DNA of 14,336 nt from a virus. A model generated the notes under the pieces. The model saw only the letters and a program-made list of their open reading frames with translations, ran no database searches and had not been told where the DNA came from. The translations under genes and the position numbers were made by a program. Location: UHGV virus genome UHGV-0226239; one strand, 5' to 3'. Shown here piece by piece: positions 196 to 14,197 of the stretch. How positions within the stretch are numbered: position 1 is the first letter of the stretch; every line of letters begins with the position of its first letter.

Positions 196-429
196 ATGCG
201 CATTGAAATAATGATCGATAAAGAGCAGAAGATTAGCCAGTCTACCCTGGACGCCCTTGAATCCGAGCTTTACCGCAATCTGCGCCCCCTGTATCCCAAA
301 ACGGTAATTCGCATTCGCAAAGGTAGCTCTAACGGTGTGGAACTAACCGGACTGCAACTGGATGAAGAAAGAAAACAAGTGATGAAAATTATGCAGAAGG
401 TGTGGGAGGACGACAGCTGGCTGCATTAA
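196..429 (+). CDS. DinI-like protein (77 aa if started at internal ATG 196)
   Basis: Translation MRIEIMIDK...DALESEL...VWEDDSWLH resembles the DinI family (E. coli DinI begins MRIEVTIAK and ends with an acidic, Trp-containing tail). GAGGTGA RBS sits 5 nt upstream of ATG 196. The ORF-track start at 124 adds 24 residues with no RBS support. Confidence 0.65.
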   Translation: MRIEIMIDKEQKISQSTLDALESELYRNLRPLYPKTVIRIRKGSSNGVELTGLQLDEERKQVMKIMQKVWEDDSWLH

Positions 430-957: not shown

Positions 958-1336
958 GGAAACTCCTTTTATTGGTGCTTGCTATTTGAATAAAAATACG
1001 CCAAACAGAGTGTTAACTGTGAATATGGAAAGAATCGTTGTAAGTACCCCGCTTAGGTGTCCCATTCTATTTTAGAGGTTCTCGTGCATATGGATTATGT
1101 TATCTGAAAGTTAACTTCCGCTTCCCGTTCACAGCGAACATTCATCTTTGTAAACCCGTATGATCCGTTTTTCAAGTGGCCATTCAGATACGGATTTTCA
1201 CTTCCTTGACAGTGCATGACTATGCTGCATGAAATCGCATGATCGATTGAGGATCGTCTTTGCTCAGATCCGCCAGAACTGGCGGGCTTTTGCTCATGTC
1301 ATGCATGTGCATGAAAACCACTGCATAAAGCGGGCA

Positions 1337-1355
1337 GGCGTGGCGGGGATACGAG
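1337..1355. other. Candidate cos (cohesive end) site of the P2/186 type
   Basis: GGCGTGGCGGGGATACGAG: the first 13 nt match the 19-nt cohesive-end sequence of P2/186 as I remember it (GGCG[A/T]GGCGGGGAAAGCA[C/T]); it lies in a non-coding stretch near the Q end of the packaging module. Recalled from memory, not aligned. Confidence 0.3.
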
Positions 1356-1527
1356 CGCGCGTACAGTGCTTGTCTGTTATAATTGCTCAGAAGTTATGAA
1401 TAAAAGAATGGTTAATTATTAGGCAGTCATTGCAGTATGGGATAGTCATTTTTTATCAAGTAGTAATAGATTTCTATTTGATGAAAATAACTACAGTTAA
1501 ATAAGGTATGTTTAGGGAGCCAATAAA

Positions 1528-2673
1528 GTGGCAAATGATATCTTACATTTAGTTCTTGATTCGAATGTTCTTCATGAAGAAGGTTTAAATTCGAATGATA
1601 TGAAGTTATTGAAAAAATATACCGACAAAGGTTTGATTAGAATTCATTTACCTTCACTTGTGGCTAAGGAGTTTGTAACACGAAAATCAAATAATTTAAT
1701 TGATGGTCTGGAGAAATCAAAACAGTCTTTGGATTCTGTTGAGAGAGATGCTAGAGGAATAAGTGAAGAGTTATTGGAATGTTTTGATGAACTAAAGAAA
1801 AAAATCATCAATGCAAAAAATGACATTGGGAATAAACCACAGGAATGTTTTGACCGTTGGGTGCAGGACTTTAAAGTTTCTATTGTTGACACAATACCTG
1901 ACTCTGTAAATGAAGTTTTTAACGATTACTTTTTAGGTAAAGGTGTCTTCAGAAAACCAAAGGCTAGGGAAGATATACCTGATGCTTTTATTTGCGTAAC
2001 GATAATTAATTTGCTATCTGAGTTTGGCAGTATTGTTGTAGTAAATAAAGATAAAGCTTTTCGTAAACATTTGTCTGAGTATGATAAAATACAGGTGCTT
2101 CAGAGTCTGCGTGAAGTCTTTTCTTTAAAAGGTATAGATTTATTAGAAGATGAGTCAATGTTGGATTTAATCCATTCTGCTGAGTTTGTCTCTGCACTTA
2201 GCCAGTATCTACGACAGCGCCCAGATGCATTTGAGTATGTGTATTTACATGAGGATGAAATATCAAAAATAGCATTAATTGGTCAAAGGATATATGGCGC
2301 TAGTATAGAAGTAGAAAATTATAACGATATTGCTAATGCAAGTATTTCTGATGCTAGAAGTATTGATGAGCATACCTATTCGGCTTTGCTTAGTTTTGAT
2401 ATGAATGTAAATATAAATTATATAACTGATTATGGCACATTTCTCGATATAGAAAGAACACATGGTAGAAGACCAGAGATGGAAAGTATGAATGGTGACG
2501 GTATTTGTGATGTGTCTGAAAATGCTTTAACAAAGTTTTATGGTGATTTGACCGTCAAATTCAAAAAAAACAGAGAAGAGATTGACAAAAGTGATATTGT
2601 TAGATTTCTCCTTGATGAGGATATATGTGTTCAGTTTGAGATAAAAAACATTGAAATAATTGAAATGTTATAA
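1528..2673 (+). CDS. AT-rich cargo gene: 381-aa protein with N-terminal PIN-like nuclease motifs and a C-terminal domain of unknown function; candidate single-gene anti-phage/abortive-infection effector
   Basis: GTG start at 1528 preceded by AGGGAG with 8-nt spacing. About 30% GC against about 58% in flanking phage genes. Motifs D11 (ILHLVLDSNVL), E48 (PSLVAKEF), D152 (DIPDAFICVTI) and D175 (VVVNKDKAF) fit the four conserved acidic positions of PIN domains, with an insertion of about 55 aa between the second and third. Followed by a hairpin terminator. Confidence 0.8.
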   Translation: MANDILHLVLDSNVLHEEGLNSNDMKLLKKYTDKGLIRIHLPSLVAKEFVTRKSNNLIDGLEKSKQSLDSVERDARGISEELLECFDELKKKIINAKNDIGNKPQECFDRWVQDFKVSIVDTIPDSVNEVFNDYFLGKGVFRKPKAREDIPDAFICVTIINLLSEFGSIVVVNKDKAFRKHLSEYDKIQVLQSLREVFSLKGIDLLEDESMLDLIHSAEFVSALSQYLRQRPDAFEYVYLHEDEISKIALIGQRIYGASIEVENYNDIANASISDARSIDEHTYSALLSFDMNVNINYITDYGTFLDIERTHGRRPEMESMNGDGICDVSENALTKFYGDLTVKFKKNREEIDKSDIVRFLLDEDICVQFEIKNIEIIEML

Positions 2674-2712: not shown

Positions 2713-3741
2713 TTAAAACGTATATTTTTCGAATCTGATCGTTTTTCCCACAAGCCAGTCGTTAATTTCTTCTAAACGTTTTTGTAAGGGAATTAATTCA
2801 TTCCGAACAAATACCCGACTAGCCTTCTCCACATCCCCAAATCCCCCGACATTATTTGGCATAATTCCCATCATCTGCGGCGGCACGCGGTGTGCCGCCA
2901 TCATGTCATCGCGACTAACATTTTTGATATTCAAAAACTCATCCTTTGCCGCGACTTCAGACAACGGGATGATCTGAAGCCCGTCCTTTTTGCCGTTCGG
3001 CGAGTACATAAACAGGTTACGGAAGTTGCCAGGTCCTTTGGCGCTTTTCATCGCATTACGGAGGTTGTTCACGTCCTCCTGGTTCTGCGCGGCATCGGTC
3101 ATGTACATGATGAAGCCAGCATGACTGCCGTTTATGTAATACTTTCGACGGAACAGCGTGGCGGACTCATTGAGCAGGGCGGACGGAATAGCAGAAAGAT
3201 AGCCGGGCAGGCCATAGATCTCCTGATTTATGTCCGGTTCCATCAGATGGAAAATGCTGCCTTTCGTGAACTGATACGGTTGCGTGGTCATGCCGTATTG
3301 CACAAACCAGTAGGTATCCAGGTCTAATCCACGTCGGGTGTATTTTGCCAGCGCAGGCTCAAGAGCGATAACTTCACCGAATCGGTTCGTGCGTTTCTCC
3401 AGGTAGGCGTTACCAAATACCAGATAGTCCTGCACAAAACGTGAAAAAGCCTGCTGGCTGAGCAGCGGGTGAGGGATGTAGGTACTGGTCAGAATGTTGC
3501 ATTTCACCGCAATTGGTGAACTGTGATGCACGGCGGCGCGGAAGGTGCGCGCCAGTCCGTCAAAGCTTACTGGCGGCTCATACCAGCGATCTGTCTGTAC
3601 GCATTCCACATAGTCCAGCAGTTCTCGGCGGTCCAGAACAGGAACGGGATCGCCGAAGCTGAATGCTTCGGCTGTAGTTTGACTTTTAAGCTGGATCTGT
3701 TTCGTCGCCGCAGCGCGGTTCTTCTTACTCTTTCCCATCAA
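2713..3741 (-). CDS. Q: Portal (capsid portal) protein, P2 gpQ-like, 342 aa
   Basis: Size and position match P2 Q (divergent from O, downstream of P on the minus strand); the start ATG overlaps the P stop (ATGA-type coupling). Confidence 0.9.
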   Translation of the reverse strand: MMGKSKKNRAAATKQIQLKSQTTAEAFSFGDPVPVLDRRELLDYVECVQTDRWYEPPVSFDGLARTFRAAVHHSSPIAVKCNILTSTYIPHPLLSQQAFSRFVQDYLVFGNAYLEKRTNRFGEVIALEPALAKYTRRGLDLDTYWFVQYGMTTQPYQFTKGSIFHLMEPDINQEIYGLPGYLSAIPSALLNESATLFRRKYYINGSHAGFIMYMTDAAQNQEDVNNLRNAMKSAKGPGNFRNLFMYSPNGKKDGLQIIPLSEVAAKDEFLNIKNVSRDDMMAAHRVPPQMMGIMPNNVGGFGDVEKASRVFVRNELIPLQKRLEEINDWLVGKTIRFEKYTF

Positions 3742-5504
3742 AAAATCTCCACAATATTGCTGGTATTGGCGGACTCGCCTTGCAGCGGTTCGTTAAACAG
3801 TGCGTGCATCGTTGCCCAGGCCAGATCCGCATGGCTGGCTTCTTCGCTGCGGCTGGCTTCATAGGTCGGGCGGTTGCCACTGGCGGTGGTGGAGCGACGG
3901 ATTGCCATAAAGGACTGCGCTATGTCGGTGTGTCCGGCGTCAAACTCCAGACGGCGGTGGCTGATAATGTCGTAGGCCTTGAGTACCAGGGCGTTTTTAA
4001 CGTTGGGGTTGTAGACAAACTCCCGGACGGCAGGAAAGAATGCTTTCACGTTCTCGTAAACCCCGTGGCCGACGCCAGTTGAGTCGATGCCGATGTATGT
4101 CACGTTGTACTGTTCGGTCAGTTTTTTGATGGCGTCAGCCTGGGCGCGGAAGTCCATCCCGCGCCACTGGTGACGCTCAAGAATGCGGAACTTACCGCCC
4201 GGCACGGCTGGCGGTGCCACCACCACGCACCCGGCGCTGTCGCCGTTCTGCGTACCTTTTGCCGGGTCATAACCGATCCACACCTCGCGCCAGCCAAACG
4301 GGCGCAGCGCCAGTGCATGAAAGTCGGTCCAGACTTCCCAGCTGTCCACCATGCACGCCTGCAGCTCGCTGAGCGGGAACACGGACGCGAGATCGTCCAC
4401 AAACTCGCACATCAGCAGGTTCTGGTATTCGTCCGGGCTGTACTCCATGCGCAACTGGTCAAGGTCGAACAGGTTGCAGCCGCCGCGCACCGCATCTTCC
4501 ACGGTGACTATCTGGCGGTACTGCCCGTCTGCGCACAGCAGGCCGGGGGCCAGATTGCGGTGGGACAGGTCGATGTCCACCTTATCGGCTTTGTTGCGCC
4601 CTCGGTTGAACAGCGCACCGGACCAGAACGGATAAGCACTGTGTGTCAGGCTGGATGGCGTGGAAAAATAGGTTTGTCGCCATTTTTTGTGAATAGCCAT
4701 ACCGGAAGCCACTTTGCGCAGCTCCTGGAATTTCGGTATCCAGAAATATTCATCCAGATACAGGTTGCCGTGGTAACTCTGGGCCGTGCGGGCATTGGTG
4801 CCGAGGAAGTAAAGCGTGGCCCCGTTAGGAAGCACCATCGGATCGCCTTTCAGCTCCACCTCCACTTCTTTGGCGAAGTCGATGATGTACTGCTTAAAGA
4901 CGTGGGCCTGTGCCTTACTGGCGGAAAGGAAAATCTGGTTACGCCCGGTAAGCAGGGCGTCAATCAGGGCTTCACGGGCAAAGTAAAAGGTCGCGCCGAT
5001 CTGGCGTGACTTCAGCAGATTGCGGATGCGGTTGGTTTTTCCGGCTTCCCACCAGTGGCGCTGGTAGTTGAACATGGAGGAATGGAAGATTTCTTCCAGT
5101 TTCTCAATCTGTTCATCGGTGAAAACATTCTTTTCCGGCTGACGGCGCGGGCCCTTATTGCGGTTGGCGACGTTAGGGTTTAAGTCAGCTTCGTTGCCGC
5201 CATTGTTAAACTTGCCGATCCGCGCGTGGCGCTCCGACTGGCGCGCCAGCAGGTCAATCTCTTTGAAATCTTTCCCTTCTTTGTGCTCCTTCATGATGAG
5301 CTGGCAGTAGCGTGCGGCGGTGGTGAGCTGCATCTGATCCAGCGGCCCATAGTCACCCCACTTGTCGCGTTTTTTCCAGCTGTGAACGGTTGCAACTTTC
5401 TCGCCCAGCATTTCAGCTATGCGGGCTACGCGGTATCCCTGAAAGTACAGCAGCATGGCCTGCCGACGGGGATCGAGATCTGCGGGTGTCAGTGTGGTGT
5501 TCAT
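3738..5504 (-). CDS. P: Terminase large (ATPase) subunit, P2 gpP-like, 588 aa
   Basis: Size and synteny match P2 gpP (about 590 aa), immediately upstream of Q on the minus strand and divergent from O. Confidence 0.9.
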   Translation of the reverse strand: MNTTLTPADLDPRRQAMLLYFQGYRVARIAEMLGEKVATVHSWKKRDKWGDYGPLDQMQLTTAARYCQLIMKEHKEGKDFKEIDLLARQSERHARIGKFNNGGNEADLNPNVANRNKGPRRQPEKNVFTDEQIEKLEEIFHSSMFNYQRHWWEAGKTNRIRNLLKSRQIGATFYFAREALIDALLTGRNQIFLSASKAQAHVFKQYIIDFAKEVEVELKGDPMVLPNGATLYFLGTNARTAQSYHGNLYLDEYFWIPKFQELRKVASGMAIHKKWRQTYFSTPSSLTHSAYPFWSGALFNRGRNKADKVDIDLSHRNLAPGLLCADGQYRQIVTVEDAVRGGCNLFDLDQLRMEYSPDEYQNLLMCEFVDDLASVFPLSELQACMVDSWEVWTDFHALALRPFGWREVWIGYDPAKGTQNGDSAGCVVVAPPAVPGGKFRILERHQWRGMDFRAQADAIKKLTEQYNVTYIGIDSTGVGHGVYENVKAFFPAVREFVYNPNVKNALVLKAYDIISHRRLEFDAGHTDIAQSFMAIRRSTTASGNRPTYEASRSEEASHADLAWATMHALFNEPLQGESANTSNIVEIF

Positions 5505-7558: not shown

Positions 7559-8209
7559 ATGAGCCTGAGTCCCGCACGGCAGCATCGCCTGCGCGTTCAG
7601 GCTGAACAGGCCGCCCGCGAGGGCGGCAGTGTTCGCCACGCGTCGGGCTATGACCTGATGCTGCTGCAACTGGCGGAAGACCGCCGCCGTCTCAAGGGCG
7701 TTCAGTCCACGGTCAAAAAAGCGGAAATCAAGGTGGAGCTGCTGCCGAAGTACGCCGCCTGGGCGGAGGGGGTCCTGGCTGCCGGAGGCGCTCAACAGGA
7801 TGACGTGCTGATGTACGTGATGCTGTGGCGCATTGATGCCGGAGATTATGCCGGGGCGCTGGAGATCGGGCGTCATGCCCTGCGTCATGGCTGGGTGATG
7901 CCGCTGGGTAACCGCAACGTGCAGACCGTGCTGGCAGAGGAAATGGCAGACGCCGCGCAGAGCGCAATGCTTGCCGCCATCGGCTTTGATGCCGATCTGT
8001 TGCTGCAGACACTGGAGCTGACAGACGGTCTGGATATGCCGGACCAGTCACGGGCGCGTCTGCATAAAGCGATTGGCGCTGTCCTGAGTGAAAGCAATCC
8101 GGCTTCCGCCCTTAATCATCTCAACCATGCGTTACAGCTCGATCCCCGCTGTGGCGTGAAAAAAGACAAACAGCAGCTGGAGCGCAGACTGCGCAATGAC
8201 AGCCGCTGA
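7559..8209 (+). CDS. M: Terminase small (endonuclease) subunit, P2 gpM-like, 216 aa
   Basis: Synteny after N; motifs LPKYAAWAEGVL and DDVLMYVMLWRIDAGDYAGALEIGRHAL resemble P2 gpM. Confidence 0.85.
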   Translation: MSLSPARQHRLRVQAEQAAREGGSVRHASGYDLMLLQLAEDRRRLKGVQSTVKKAEIKVELLPKYAAWAEGVLAAGGAQQDDVLMYVMLWRIDAGDYAGALEIGRHALRHGWVMPLGNRNVQTVLAEEMADAAQSAMLAAIGFDADLLLQTLELTDGLDMPDQSRARLHKAIGAVLSESNPASALNHLNHALQLDPRCGVKKDKQQLERRLRNDSR

Positions 8210-10621: not shown

Positions 10622-11015
10622 AGCGGTGCCTTATGTCCGCAATAACCCGGACAAACTGCATCTGTTTGTGGATAACGGTTCGCTGGTTGCCACGGGGGCC
10701 AGCTCTATGTCGTGGGAGTACCGTTACACCCTGAACGCGGTGATTGAGGATTTCAGCGGCGACCAGAATCTGCTGATGGCCCCGGTTTTGCTGTGGCTGA
10801 GGGATAACCAGCCCGATGCCATCAATAACCCGGCGTTACGGAAAAAACTATTCACCTTTGAGGTGGATATTCTGCGCAACGATGTCTGTGATATCAGCCT
10901 GAACCTGCAACTGACAGAGCGTGTGCTGGTCAGCACTGACGGCAGTGTGTCAAGTGTTGAAGCGGTAGCGGAACCCGATGAACCAGAAGAAATGTGGACG
11001 GTGAAACGTGGCTGA
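10584..11015 (+). CDS. R: Tail completion protein, P2 gpR-like, about 143 aa from GTG 10584
   Basis: N-terminus VNKPQSLRHAL...LHLFVDNGS resembles the gpR N-terminus; AGGAGC lies 7 nt before GTG 10584. The ORF-track ATG at 10563 is an alternative start. Confidence 0.8.
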   Translation: MNKPQSLRHALNKAVPYVRNNPDKLHLFVDNGSLVATGASSMSWEYRYTLNAVIEDFSGDQNLLMAPVLLWLRDNQPDAINNPALRKKLFTFEVDILRNDVCDISLNLQLTERVLVSTDGSVSSVEAVAEPDEPEEMWTVKRG

Positions 11016-11454
11016 ATTACAGAAGGTGGACGACTGGCTGAGTGCTTTGCTGGCGAATCTGGAGCCAGCCGCAAGAAGCCGCATGATGCGCCAGCTGGCG
11101 CAGGAACTGCGCCGGACACAGCAGCAGAATATCAGGATGCAGCGCAACCCTGACGGCAGCAGCTATGAACCGCGACGGGTAACAGCACGCAGTAAAAAAG
11201 GCCGTATCAAACGTCAGATGTTTGCAAAGCTGCGCACCACAAAATACCTGAAAACTGCCGCCAGCGCGGATTCTGCCAGCGTACAGTTTGAAGGTAAGGT
11301 ACAGCGCATTGCCCGCGTTCACCATTACGGCCTGCGTGATCGCGTCAGTCGAAAAGGACCGGAAGTACGATACGCAGAGCGTCGTTTACTTGGAATGAAT
11401 GAATATGCAGAAAATATAGTAAAAGATATATTGTTTCAGTTGTTAATAAAATGA
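11008..11454 (+). CDS. S: Tail completion protein, P2 gpS-like, 148 aa; the last ~20 codons are AT-rich and probably chimeric
   Basis: GTG start overlapping the R stop; motifs LRRTQQQNIRMQRNPDGS and QRIARVHHYGLRDRVSRKGPEVRY resemble gpS; base composition changes abruptly near 11388. Confidence 0.85.
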   Translation: MAELQKVDDWLSALLANLEPAARSRMMRQLAQELRRTQQQNIRMQRNPDGSSYEPRRVTARSKKGRIKRQMFAKLRTTKYLKTAASADSASVQFEGKVQRIARVHHYGLRDRVSRKGPEVRYAERRLLGMNEYAENIVKDILFQLLIK

Positions 11455-11648: not shown

Positions 11649-12302
11649 CTAATCCATAAATGGTTCAAGAATTGGACCTAATTCAGCATCTTCCATAATG
11701 ATCCATCTGCAAAATGATGAAAAAGCTGCGTCTCTTTTTATCATCATCTTCATTTTTTCAATTAAGTATTTTTTTTGTTCTGTTGGAGTATCTTCTTCAT
11801 AATATTCATTAATATTTTTAATTAGTTTTTGGGTTGTTTTCACTACTTGAGTACGAAGTGCCGCAGAAGTTAATTTTTTACTCATGGTATGATCGCTATT
11901 ATATACTTTCTCAAGTAACTCTGCGGTCGTCTGCGTTTCAATATCATTAAATAGTGCTGTTACTGTTATTTTTTTTGCTTTATAAGAATATCCTGGGAGT
12001 AATTTTACTCGATCCCATACCTTTTCTTTACAGCAATCAAGAATGTTGTCATATTTTGATAGTTTTATATTGTTACATCTGGAACATGATAGATATAAAT
12101 TATCCCAATCAAAAGCTCTTTCCACATCATCACCCTTGGGTTTAAAATGTTCAATGTTTATATCCAAAGGGTTCTTTGTTTCGCAAATGTAACATTTTCC
12201 ATAAAAGCATTCCTGTAGTGCTTCATGTACATCAGCACCATCATAACGTGCTTTCTTGGAAAGAGACTTTGGTGCAGGATATGTTCTATTAACCTTGAAC
12301 AT
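11649..12302 (-). CDS. HNH endonuclease-domain protein, 217 aa (Septu PtuB-like)
   Basis: HNH/His-Me finger signature CYICE...IEHFKPKG...NLYLSCSRCNN (two CxxC pairs bracketing His and Asn); AGGAG RBS 5 nt upstream; the ATG overlaps the stop of the upstream ATPase gene (TAATG); about 30% GC. Confidence 0.8.
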   Translation of the reverse strand: MFKVNRTYPAPKSLSKKARYDGADVHEALQECFYGKCYICETKNPLDINIEHFKPKGDDVERAFDWDNLYLSCSRCNNIKLSKYDNILDCCKEKVWDRVKLLPGYSYKAKKITVTALFNDIETQTTAELLEKVYNSDHTMSKKLTSAALRTQVVKTTQKLIKNINEYYEEDTPTEQKKYLIEKMKMMIKRDAAFSSFCRWIIMEDAELGPILEPFMD

Positions 12303-13531
12303 TATTTCTCCTGAGAATTTGCTTTTTTATATTTTAGTATCTGCATTTTTGCATAGTCAATAAATGCACTTGCATGGATGTCCATGGATTCATCTAAAGG
12401 TGCTAAGGATTGTATTATGTTATTGGCAGTTTCAATATTGTTGTTGTTAATATTGTCAATAATATCTTGAAGTTGTTCTAACTTATCTGAAAGAACTTTA
12501 GATATTGGACTTACTCCGAATAATTCTTGAAGGATGATACCATAAGAATATGAAGACACATCACTAATTTTCGCGTTGGTCGATAGATCATAAATGATGG
12601 CATTTGTGACGGATGTAACAACAAACGGAGAATGTGTAGTGACAATGAATTGTACTTTAGGAAAGGAGTGACTAAAAAATCTTAATATTTGCTTTTGCAA
12701 AGAAACATGTAAATGCGCATCTATTTCATCAATAAAAATAATACCTTCGATACTGTCAGGTGTTAAACCCCACATTTCTACTCTCATTATTAAGTCAGCG
12801 TAAATTCTCAATATTGATGAGTGGCCAGAAGATAATGTTTGAAAAGTAAACTTATCTTTACCATCTTGATTGAGATAAAATTTTCCTTCGTTACTATCAA
12901 ACGTTAGTAAGAGGTTTTTATCTTCAAAAAGTTCCTGCATATCAGTTTCAATTTTATCAAACCATTTCTGTATCCGCTGAGCTTTCTTATGGTCATTATC
13001 AAAAGAAATTGCATAGCTCTGAGCTGTTTTTAAACTAACCAAATAATTCTCAAAGAAATCATCACCATCTACTTCATTAGAAAAATGTGATTTTTCATTA
13101 ATTAAAGCCGATAGCCTAGGAACGGCAATTGGCGAGGTAATTGATGCTTCACGTAGAGCTTTGTGAAATCTCAATAGTGAACGTGTTTCACCTTCTTTTT
13201 CTTTTGTTTCTATTCTAATGGCTTTTAATTGTTCAATTTTTAATTCAATGTTTTTTATTTCTTCAGAATAAAAGTTGTAATTAACGTCGTCACGCCCGCC
13301 GTTATTTAAGTGATATTTGTAGGACTCTAACGTATTGTATAAATTATTGATGTTATGATCATTAGGTCTATCTATCTTATTTTTAAGGAAATCATAAATA
13401 GATCTAATAAAACTAGTTTTTCCACACCCGTTACCACCAGTTATTATGAGATTTTTACCGTCAAGCAATAAGTTTGCTGTCTTATTAGTGTATGGAATTG
13501 GAGCATAAATTTCATTTATTGATGTAAGCAT
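12302..13531 (-). CDS. ABC-type / AAA_21-like ATPase, about 409 aa from ATG 13531 (Septu PtuA-like)
   Basis: Walker A (GGNGCGKTS), signature-like LSSGHSS, Walker B (IIFIDEIDAHLH) and H-loop (VTTHSP) motifs. The ORF-track start at 13630 would overlap gene V and its promoter; the internal ATG at 13531 with an AAGGGAA RBS is preferred. Confidence 0.8.
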   Translation of the reverse strand: MLTSINEIYAPIPYTNKTANLLLDGKNLIITGGNGCGKTSFIRSIYDFLKNKIDRPNDHNINNLYNTLESYKYHLNNGGRDDVNYNFYSEEIKNIELKIEQLKAIRIETKEKEGETRSLLRFHKALREASITSPIAVPRLSALINEKSHFSNEVDGDDFFENYLVSLKTAQSYAISFDNDHKKAQRIQKWFDKIETDMQELFEDKNLLLTFDSNEGKFYLNQDGKDKFTFQTLSSGHSSILRIYADLIMRVEMWGLTPDSIEGIIFIDEIDAHLHVSLQKQILRFFSHSFPKVQFIVTTHSPFVVTSVTNAIIYDLSTNAKISDVSSYSYGIILQELFGVSPISKVLSDKLEQLQDIIDNINNNNIETANNIIQSLAPLDESMDIHASAFIDYAKMQILKYKKANSQEK

Positions 13532-13618
13532 ATATTCCCTTGTGTCGTTAACAGTACAACTACAACACTGATAATAATACAACTTATTGAGATACAGTTC
13601 ACCTTTAAGGGGGGAAGG
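13532..13618. promoter_or_regulatory. Predicted V late promoter (P_V) with TGT-N12-ACA at 13541-13558, overlapping the divergent promoter/5' UTR of the ATPase-HNH operon
   Basis: TGTgtcgttaacagtACA read directly; its centre is about 55 bp upstream of a plausible start just before the V RBS (AAGGGGGGAAGG). A TATTAT -10-like hexamer on the minus strand (13574-13579) is a candidate promoter element for the divergent cargo operon. Confidence 0.4.
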
Positions 13619-14197
13619 GTGAACGCACAATTAACCGAAATCATGCGCCTTATCACCAACCTGATCCGCACTGGGGTAGTCACCGAAGTGGACAGGGAAA
13701 ACTGGCTTTGCCGAGTGAAAACGGGCGAGCTTGAAACTAACTGGATCAGTTGGCTGACGCTGCGTGCAGGAAATGCCCGGACATGGTGGCGACCATCGGA
13801 AGGTGAGCAGGTGGTGCTGCTGAGTCTGGGGGGCAATCTGGAAACGGCCTTTGCGCTGCCCGCTGTCTATTCGAATCAGTTTGCGCCACCGTCGACGTCG
13901 GCGGACGCCTGTGTGACAGAATATCCTGACGGTGGCTGGTTTGAATACGAACCTGCCACCGGGCGCTGGTATGTCAGGGGCATCAAATCCATGGTCATTG
14001 AGGCTGCCGATAACATCACCCTGAAAACCAGTGAGTTTGTGCTGGAGGCTGAGTGCACGCGTATTAACAGCGAAGTGGTGGTCAATGGTGGCGTTACTCA
14101 GGGCGGCGGAGCGATGAGTTCTAACGGGATCGTGGTTGATGCGCATCAGCATACTGGCGTCCTGAAAGGCGGCGATACAACCGGAGGCCCGGTATGA
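13619..14197 (+). CDS. V: Baseplate assembly/spike protein, P2 gpV-like, 192 aa
   Basis: GTG start with a strong RBS; motifs LTLRAGNARTWW.PSEGEQVVLL...GGN.ETAF.LP and a C-terminal SNG...H.HTG block resemble gpV. Confidence 0.85.
   Translation: MNAQLTEIMRLITNLIRTGVVTEVDRENWLCRVKTGELETNWISWLTLRAGNARTWWRPSEGEQVVLLSLGGNLETAFALPAVYSNQFAPPSTSADACVTEYPDGGWFEYEPATGRWYVRGIKSMVIEAADNITLKTSEFVLEAECTRINSEVVVNGGVTQGGGAMSSNGIVVDAHQHTGVLKGGDTTGGPV

Follow-up and report, generated by a model that had tools for sequence, protein, structure and literature searches.

A probable Fels-2/SEN8-type cos site, flanked by two cargo slots, in a P2-family prophage

Phage P2 packages monomeric circles, not concatemers. 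Its annotated cohesive end is GGCGAGGCGGGGAAAGCAC and that of phage 186 is GGCGTGGCGGGGAAAGCAT. When cos junctions of P2, 186, and P4 are rebuilt by joining right and left ends, all three have the same layout. Three (T/C)GCAT boxes lie ∼125, 112, and 101 bp before the cut, ATGCAnnTGCAT(G/T)AAAA lies ∼37–19 bp before the cut, and AAGCGGGC(A/G) is directly before the cut and is followed by the 19-nt end and then (T/C)GCGCG. Passages in three articles describe a 55-bp cos core common to P2-family phages and P4 (PMC5694545, PMC3931495, PMC9594776, citing Ziermann and Calendar 1990). Nearest to the sequence studied here is the cos site printed for Salmonella phage SEN8 (PMC5427200). The surroundings of cos have also been described as a location of accessory genes. 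P2-like phages have a defence hotspot in the gpA–gpQ region, next to cos, and that of P4 directly adjoins cos (PMC9122126; Rousset et al. 2022). The cosL–Q position is likewise named as a hotspot in a passage of PMC5694545 (citing Dodd and Egan 1996; Nakayama 1999).

The window, meaning the whole stretch of 14,336 nt that was analyzed, has the gene set of a P2-family (Peduoviridae) prophage according to a Pfam search, with matches to four terminase accessions (PF05944, PF03237, PF17289, and PF06056; table 1). Genes Q, P, O, N, M, and L are all full-length and adjoin the cos block, which sits in a non-coding stretch with a 111-aa ORF on one side and a PIN-domain gene on the other. The order of DinI, cargo, cos, cargo, Q, and P matches that of P2, 186, and SEN8, and gene order around cos is the same in two other loci (L129 and L130). 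The block is therefore located as it is in the P2 family, between the accessory region on the gene A/DinI side and the portal and terminase genes Q and P. As judged from sequence comparisons, the window has the cos sequence of the family, at the genomic position typical of the family and near cognate terminase genes, in the form of a sharply bounded 151-bp block. We conclude that this block is very probably the cos site of a Fels-2/SEN8 (Felsduovirus-like) P2-family prophage, with a scheme of recognition and nicking by gpM and gpP as proposed below. The element itself is already known and its sequence is already annotated, as putative, in the close relative SEN8.

Table 1. Coordinates of cos elements and neighboring genes in the window; signed positions are relative to the cut.
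Feature	Position	Strand	Remarks
DinI	196–429	+	Pfam
111-aa cargo ORF, DinI–cos slot	622–957	−	No Pfam or PADLOC match
Whole conserved cos block, 151 bp	1212–1362	+	−125 to +25 relative to the cut
Distal box R1, TGCATGA	1213–1219	+	GCAT at −123
Distal box R2, TGCATGA	1226–1232	+	GCAT at −110
Distal box R3, CGCATGA	1236–1242	+	GCAT at −100
Two GATC (Dam) sites, 11 bp apart	1241–1244 and 1252–1255	.	−96 and −85; Fels-2-type cos
Palindrome CCGCCAG-AA-CTGGCGG (1270–1285), then TTTT (1288–1291)	1270–1291	+	Terminator-like, subtype-specific
Proximal inverted TGCAT pair, TCATGCA-tg-TGCATGA	1299–1314	.	Inverted repeat, runs into A4 tract 1314–1317
Left nick box, GCGGGCA	1330–1336	+	Directly 5′ of the inferred top-strand nick
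Inferred 19-nt 5′ cohesive end, GGCGTGGCGGGGATACGAG	1337–1355	+	Identical to putative cos of SEN8
Right nick box, bottom strand 5′-ACGCGCG	1356–1362	−	Mirror of left box; family consensus GCGCGCR
PIN_12-domain cargo gene, cos–Q slot	1528–2673	+	Pfam PF16289, E = 9e-21
gpQ-like portal gene	2713–3741	−	Pfam Phage_portal; right edge of cos–Q cargo slot
gpP-like large terminase subunit	3738–5504	−	Pfam Terminase_6N, Terminase_6C, Terminase_5
gpM-like small terminase subunit	7559–8209	+	Pfam Phage_term_smal, E = 8.5e-40
Scaffold gpO, capsid gpN, gpL; further along gpR, gpS, gpV			Pfam

The cohesive end ties the window to SEN8. All 19 nucleotides are identical to those annotated as "putative cos site" at positions 1–19 of the SEN8 record (KT630647.2), the same 19-mer that PMC5427200 prints, and the record ends with a base that aligns to position 1336 of the window, i.e., at the cut. 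The G+C-rich start of P2-family cohesive ends, GGCG(A/T)GGCGGGG, is present at 1337–1349. The first-pass annotation had recognized this segment (GGCGTGGCGGGGA) as a cos-like start matching the ends of P2 and 186. This was borne out in full for 186, whose cohesive end has the same first 13 nt, and in SEN8, where the segment is part of the putative cos, but P2 differs at one base (12 of 13 identical). In a MAFFT alignment, the 19-nt segment is identical at 15 of 19 positions to 186 and at 14 of 19 to each of P2 and P4. Of the 57 core positions from −38 to +19, the window shares 45 with 186 and 41 with P2, and it has each of the core elements TGCAT(G/T)AAAACC, AAGCGGGCR, and the G-run. Across the proximal 38 bp, identity to the SEN8, 186, P2, and P4 references is 26–34 of 38. 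Alignment to the cos regions of P2, 186, and P4, suggested in the first-pass annotation as a check, thus places the cohesive end, the proximal arm, and the three distal boxes in register. The top-strand cut is inferred to be between 1336 and 1337, with the nick position taken from the annotation of P2 and 186, and the 19-nt length of the overhang and the nick positions were carried over from these two phages by alignment.

The limits of the block were drawn from two sets of loci. A scan of IMG/VR with GGGCRGGCGWGGCGGGGA yielded 116 usable loci of P2/186/P4 type, anchored on the cut, after removal of three G+C-rich false matches before counting. A second, independent set came from a search with a 34-mer covering only −9 to +25 and comprised 26 species-representative genomes (Klebsiella, Citrobacter, Enterobacter, Raoultella, Serratia, Pantoea, Escherichia, and others). 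In the 43 Fels-2-type loci, the commonest base at each position from −125 to +25 has a frequency of at least 0.8, against ∼0.4 on either side, and the same two edges recur in the 26 independent genomes. Matches found by blastn to 81 phage records span 1211–1361, and homology to Escherichia coli genomes breaks at 1212 and 1361, coinciding with the edges of the block. Directly before the cut, AAGCGGGCR is nearly invariant across the 116 loci, with positions −10 to −6 being outside the search pattern. On the other side of the overhang, TGCGCGC at +19 to +25 (counted from 0) is conserved and beyond +25 nothing is conserved. Two contigs from the draft genome of Escherichia sp. E1V33 (L135 and L156, of 3.5 and 3.4 kb, respectively) both end ∼30 bp past the cos core, as might be expected if the assembly broke at a cos block that two or more P2-like elements with differing flanks have in common.

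Breakpoints and swapped flanks in E. coli indicate that the cargo slots on the two sides of cos change independently of each other. Both slots are known ones, and in the window they are filled by the PIN_12 gene and the 111-aa ORF. The comparison covered 5,426 complete E. coli genomes. Four of them share positions 1212–2800 (cos, PIN, and Q) at 99.1% identity and annotate the cargo only as "PIN domain-containing protein". More than 100 share positions 900–1361, from the 5′ end of the 111-aa ORF through cos, at ∼99–100% identity and have other genes on the Q side. Both flanks occur together in none of the 5,426, and an exact 39-mer across the cos/PIN junction had no match in species-representative genomes. 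One relative has almost no gap between DinI and cos, after which comes the PIN gene; an E. coli relative has the 111-aa ORF ahead of cos and carries a retron St85 system between cos and Q.

The PIN_12 protein is 381 aa in length, with the PIN_12 domain at its N-terminus (residues 8–178) and no Pfam match in the ∼200 residues from 179 to 381. The region of the gene is ∼30–35% GC versus ∼50–55% for the phage. A PADLOC search returned no match for the PIN_12 gene, and neither Pfam nor PADLOC returned a match for the 111-aa ORF. By gene order, the first-pass annotation was correct in placing the PIN gene on the Q side of cos, opposite to tin/old. The position is nonetheless ordinary because 48 of the 91 loci in which Q could be located, SEN8, and the relative with the retron all carry cargo between cos and Q. 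Across these 91 loci, the cos–Q distance is 179–230 bp in 42 and 393–4,415 bp in 48; in the window it is 1,377 bp. Given that it is in a known slot, the PIN gene is a reasonable candidate for an accessory or defence gene, rather than the product of an unusual rearrangement. A third cargo locus of the prophage lies between genes S (11008–11454) and V (13619–14197, baseplate), in what we take to be the "orf30" slot of the P2 map. A complete Septu system is located there (11649–13630, − strand), on the strand opposite to tail gene S and gene V, and consists of PtuA (12302–13630; PADLOC E = 2e-138) and PtuB/HNH (11649–12302; PADLOC E = 5e-100).

A site that is cos by descent could belong to a defective prophage and be out of use for packaging. 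The window gives a view of only 14 kb, with the integrase, regulatory, and tail-fibre regions outside of it, and the absence of the identical full arrangement from the complete E. coli genomes is also in keeping with a defective element. However, every structural or terminase gene in view is full-length and has a strong match to the family, and the block is identical to the consensus of its subtype at 140 of 152 positions, with every conserved element intact. We consider it improbable that the site has fallen out of use.

The arm upstream of the cut is characterized by TGCAT boxes. All of the at least five GCATG motifs listed in the first-pass annotation are present, with starts at 1214, 1227, 1237, 1303, and 1309, but the coordinate given as 1226 is that of the T in TGCATG. 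The spacing of 11–12 bp reported for the first three did not hold; the measured distances are 13 and 10 bp, with a mean of 11.5. A sixth GCAT is at 1323. Within the window alone, six GCAT in 126 bp compare with 0.55 expected and form its densest cluster, but 14 of 300 dinucleotide shuffles reach six GCAT somewhere, so that significance from the window alone is moderate. Comparisons across loci are far more informative. The sequence GCAT is at −28 in 100% of the 116 loci and 100% of the 26 genomes, at −100 in 88% and 92%, at −110 in 84% and 96%, and at −123 in 66% (plus 16% at −120) and 85%, respectively. In the 116 loci, the background is 1.8% per position, GCAT is almost absent between −92 and −45, and ATGCAnnTGCAT(G/T)AAAA is strongly conserved. 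The three distal boxes also align in all five sequences compared with MAFFT (window, SEN8, 186, P2, and P4). Because the distances are fixed in the 116 loci and in the 26 genomes, the boxes are a positional feature of the packaging site, and this comparative evidence, at the level of sequence, is decisive in arguing against chance.

Arrangement of these elements suggests a scheme for recognition and nicking. On the right arm, the inverted TGCAT pair and its A-tract are followed outward by a spacer of ∼60 bp and then by three boxes spaced by roughly a helical turn. The small subunit gpM, the candidate reader of TGCAT, would bind the three same-orientation boxes at −124, −111, and −101 as well as the inverted pair at −37 to −24, possibly assisted by the HTH-like N-terminal domain of gpP, for which a Pfam search gave weak HTH matches at residues 13–46. 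In virion DNA, all TGCAT boxes would be in the right-end arm. The large subunit gpP is proposed to nick both strands directly 3′ of mirror-image 5′-GCG(G/C)GCR-3′ boxes (1330–1336 on the top and 1362–1356 on the bottom strand), and the double nicking would yield 19-nt 5′ overhangs of GGCGTGGCGGGGATACGAG. The mirror image is evident in that GCGCGCR on the bottom strand at +19 to +25 corresponds to GCGGGCR at −7 to −1 of the top strand. Two such boxes, each 5′ of an inferred nick and 19 bp apart, fit symmetric nicking by a large subunit. Only 7 bp are conserved past the overhang on the Q side, implying that foreign genes can be placed against cos on either side while leaving it undamaged.

By analogy with other cos phages, the TGCAT boxes would be recognition sites of gpM. 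The distal triplet is outside the published 55-bp core and may be the actual landing pad for small terminase. Among the articles consulted, none reported terminase binding to TGCAT boxes of any P2-family phage, or binding or mapped virion ends for the Fels-2 subtype, and a structure search found no solved structures of gpM or gpP relatives. The subtype of cos tracks the lineage of terminase. In loci whose ends are ATACGAG/T, identity to the window is 84–100% for TerL and 81–99% for TerS, versus ∼63% and ∼49%, respectively, in other subtypes. This pattern is compatible with co-adaptation and also with simple linkage and co-inheritance.

The GATC pair, its two sites exactly one helical turn apart, adjoins box R3 and is inside cos. 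Both sites are kept in 63 of 69 Fels-2-type loci (40 of 43 and 23 of 26 in the two sets), in which the 7 nt between the sites take at least 12 forms, versus only 4 of 73 loci of other subtypes (P2, 186, and P4-type). In 24 of 31 informative loci, hence not strictly, the pair is accompanied by a Dam methylase gene of the phage, located beside gene A. We rejected a strict link between phage Dam and the pair because dam is also found without the pair; the comparison set of other subtypes is too small to inform. One speculative reading, which we regard as rather unlikely, is that adenine methylation, or SeqA bound to hemimethylated DNA, would gate recognition or cleavage of Fels-2-type cos, with the pair as an element gained by this subtype. 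The analogue invoked is the methylation-gated packaging of P1 pac, and many Fels-2-type phages carry their own Dam. The pair is a small addition to a known element and the only feature that might be hiding something new.

Between the distal and proximal boxes, the first-pass annotation had described a CCGCC-N6-GGCGG hairpin followed by a T-run. The palindrome is there, but what follows is CTTTTG, with only four T. A scan for terminator consensus passes at 1269–1291 (+ strand), with a stem of 7 bp. Its RNA fold of −13.3 kcal/mol (z = −1.3) is no better than those of shuffles and double changes in the stem are few, and with this unexceptional energy and weak covariation, the hairpin was rejected as a well-supported terminator. 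It was also ruled out as a universal element of cos: the palindrome is intact in 32 of 41 ATACGAG-type loci versus 1 of 32 P2-type loci. The hairpin may terminate rightward transcription in the Fels-2 lineage, which would leave the block itself unexplained.

More broadly, the block could be mainly transcriptional, as a terminator and/or an operator array that insulates the cargo slots, with the TGCAT boxes bound by a regulator. The terminator-like hairpin with its T-run is in keeping with such a role, as are the old–tin transcript starts of P2, which are ∼25–30 bp to the left of the first TGCAT box. Yet across P2, 186, P4, and Fels-2-type loci, the boxes are at fixed distances from the cut and not from genes, and the flanking genes differ completely. 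Furthermore, the hairpin is missing in P2-type cos, its fold is unexceptional, and no sigma-70-like promoter was scored in a scan of 958–1400; a candidate that would use TTGACA at 1206–1211 was dropped for lack of a score. We therefore judge a mainly transcriptional role to be very improbable and retain packaging as the function predicted for the block. That conservation reflects a small protein-coding gene is hardly credible: there is an ATG ORF of 56 aa at 1229–1399 and several phage records annotate a "hypothetical protein" under the match to the block, but in 23 of 43 relatives a stop ends this frame before 22 codons have passed, substitutions at the three codon positions number 163/174/159 without third-position excess or codon periodicity, and no frame is open across the block in most loci. 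An Rfam search of 800–2000 returned nothing at E ≤ 1 except a meaningless snoRNA fragment.

Identification of the block as cos is of value mostly for annotation, as both the cos position and, with it, the genome ends of virions are set for this prophage. The analysis contributes a map of sub-elements that is family-wide and goes beyond the 55-bp core, sharp limits of 151 bp, and a subtype-specific GATC pair. The map, comprising three distal TGCAT boxes, the inverted pair, the nick boxes, and the 7-bp Q side, is a ready design for mutagenesis and points to the 151 bp as a minimal cassette for cosmids that Fels-2-type phages would package.

Of the known systems, SEN8 (Felsduovirus) is closest. 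It is identical to the window at 32 of 32 positions across R1–R3, 47 of 55 across the spacer, and 34 of 38 across the proximal arm, and has the same order of DinI, cargo, cos, cargo, and Q. The two differ in cargo genes on both sides of cos; between cos and Q, a hypothetical protein and an HNH protein are encoded in SEN8, where the window encodes the PIN_12 protein. Fels-2, RE-2010, and SopEPhi are 84–91% identical to the window over the block. More distantly, 186, P2, and P4 share the cos architecture of the window, and P4 also has variable DNA right after +25. The window differs from these three in the last 7 nt of the overhang (ATACGAG versus AAAGCAT or AAAGCAC), in terminase, with only ∼63% identity in TerL and ∼49% in TerS, and in having the GATC pair and the palindrome with T-run, which are Fels-2-subtype features. 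In P2 and 186, only ∼180–190 bp separate cos and Q. In some IMG/VR loci (L041, L120, L084, L100, and others), among them those of the AGAGCAT end subtype, the right arm is P4-like and several kb downstream of cos contain no portal gene. These loci are probably P4-like satellites with the same layout of TGCAT boxes. Relative to the cos-adjacent hotspots of P2 and P4, cargo in the window is placed in the same manner, against cos and between gpA and gpQ, with no difference in kind; the PIN_12 gene is absent from PADLOC and a defence role for it is only a candidate one.

The cos of phage lambda offers a comparison in function only. Lambda cos is organized as cosQ–cosN–cosB, with R sites for gpNu1 and a site for IHF, and its terminase-binding subsite is on the end that is packaged first. 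Both it and the window have a staggered, partly two-fold symmetric nick site beside repeats spaced by helical turns, and in the comparison the repeats of each, R sites for gpNu1 in lambda and TGCAT boxes in the window, are presumed to be bound by a small subunit. There is no relationship in sequence, and the overhang is 12 nt in lambda versus 19 nt in the window. The two also differ in the arm involved, which weighs against the proposed scheme: the repeat array of lambda is on the left-end arm, whereas that of the window is on the right-end arm, a polarity that may be opposite to that of cosB.
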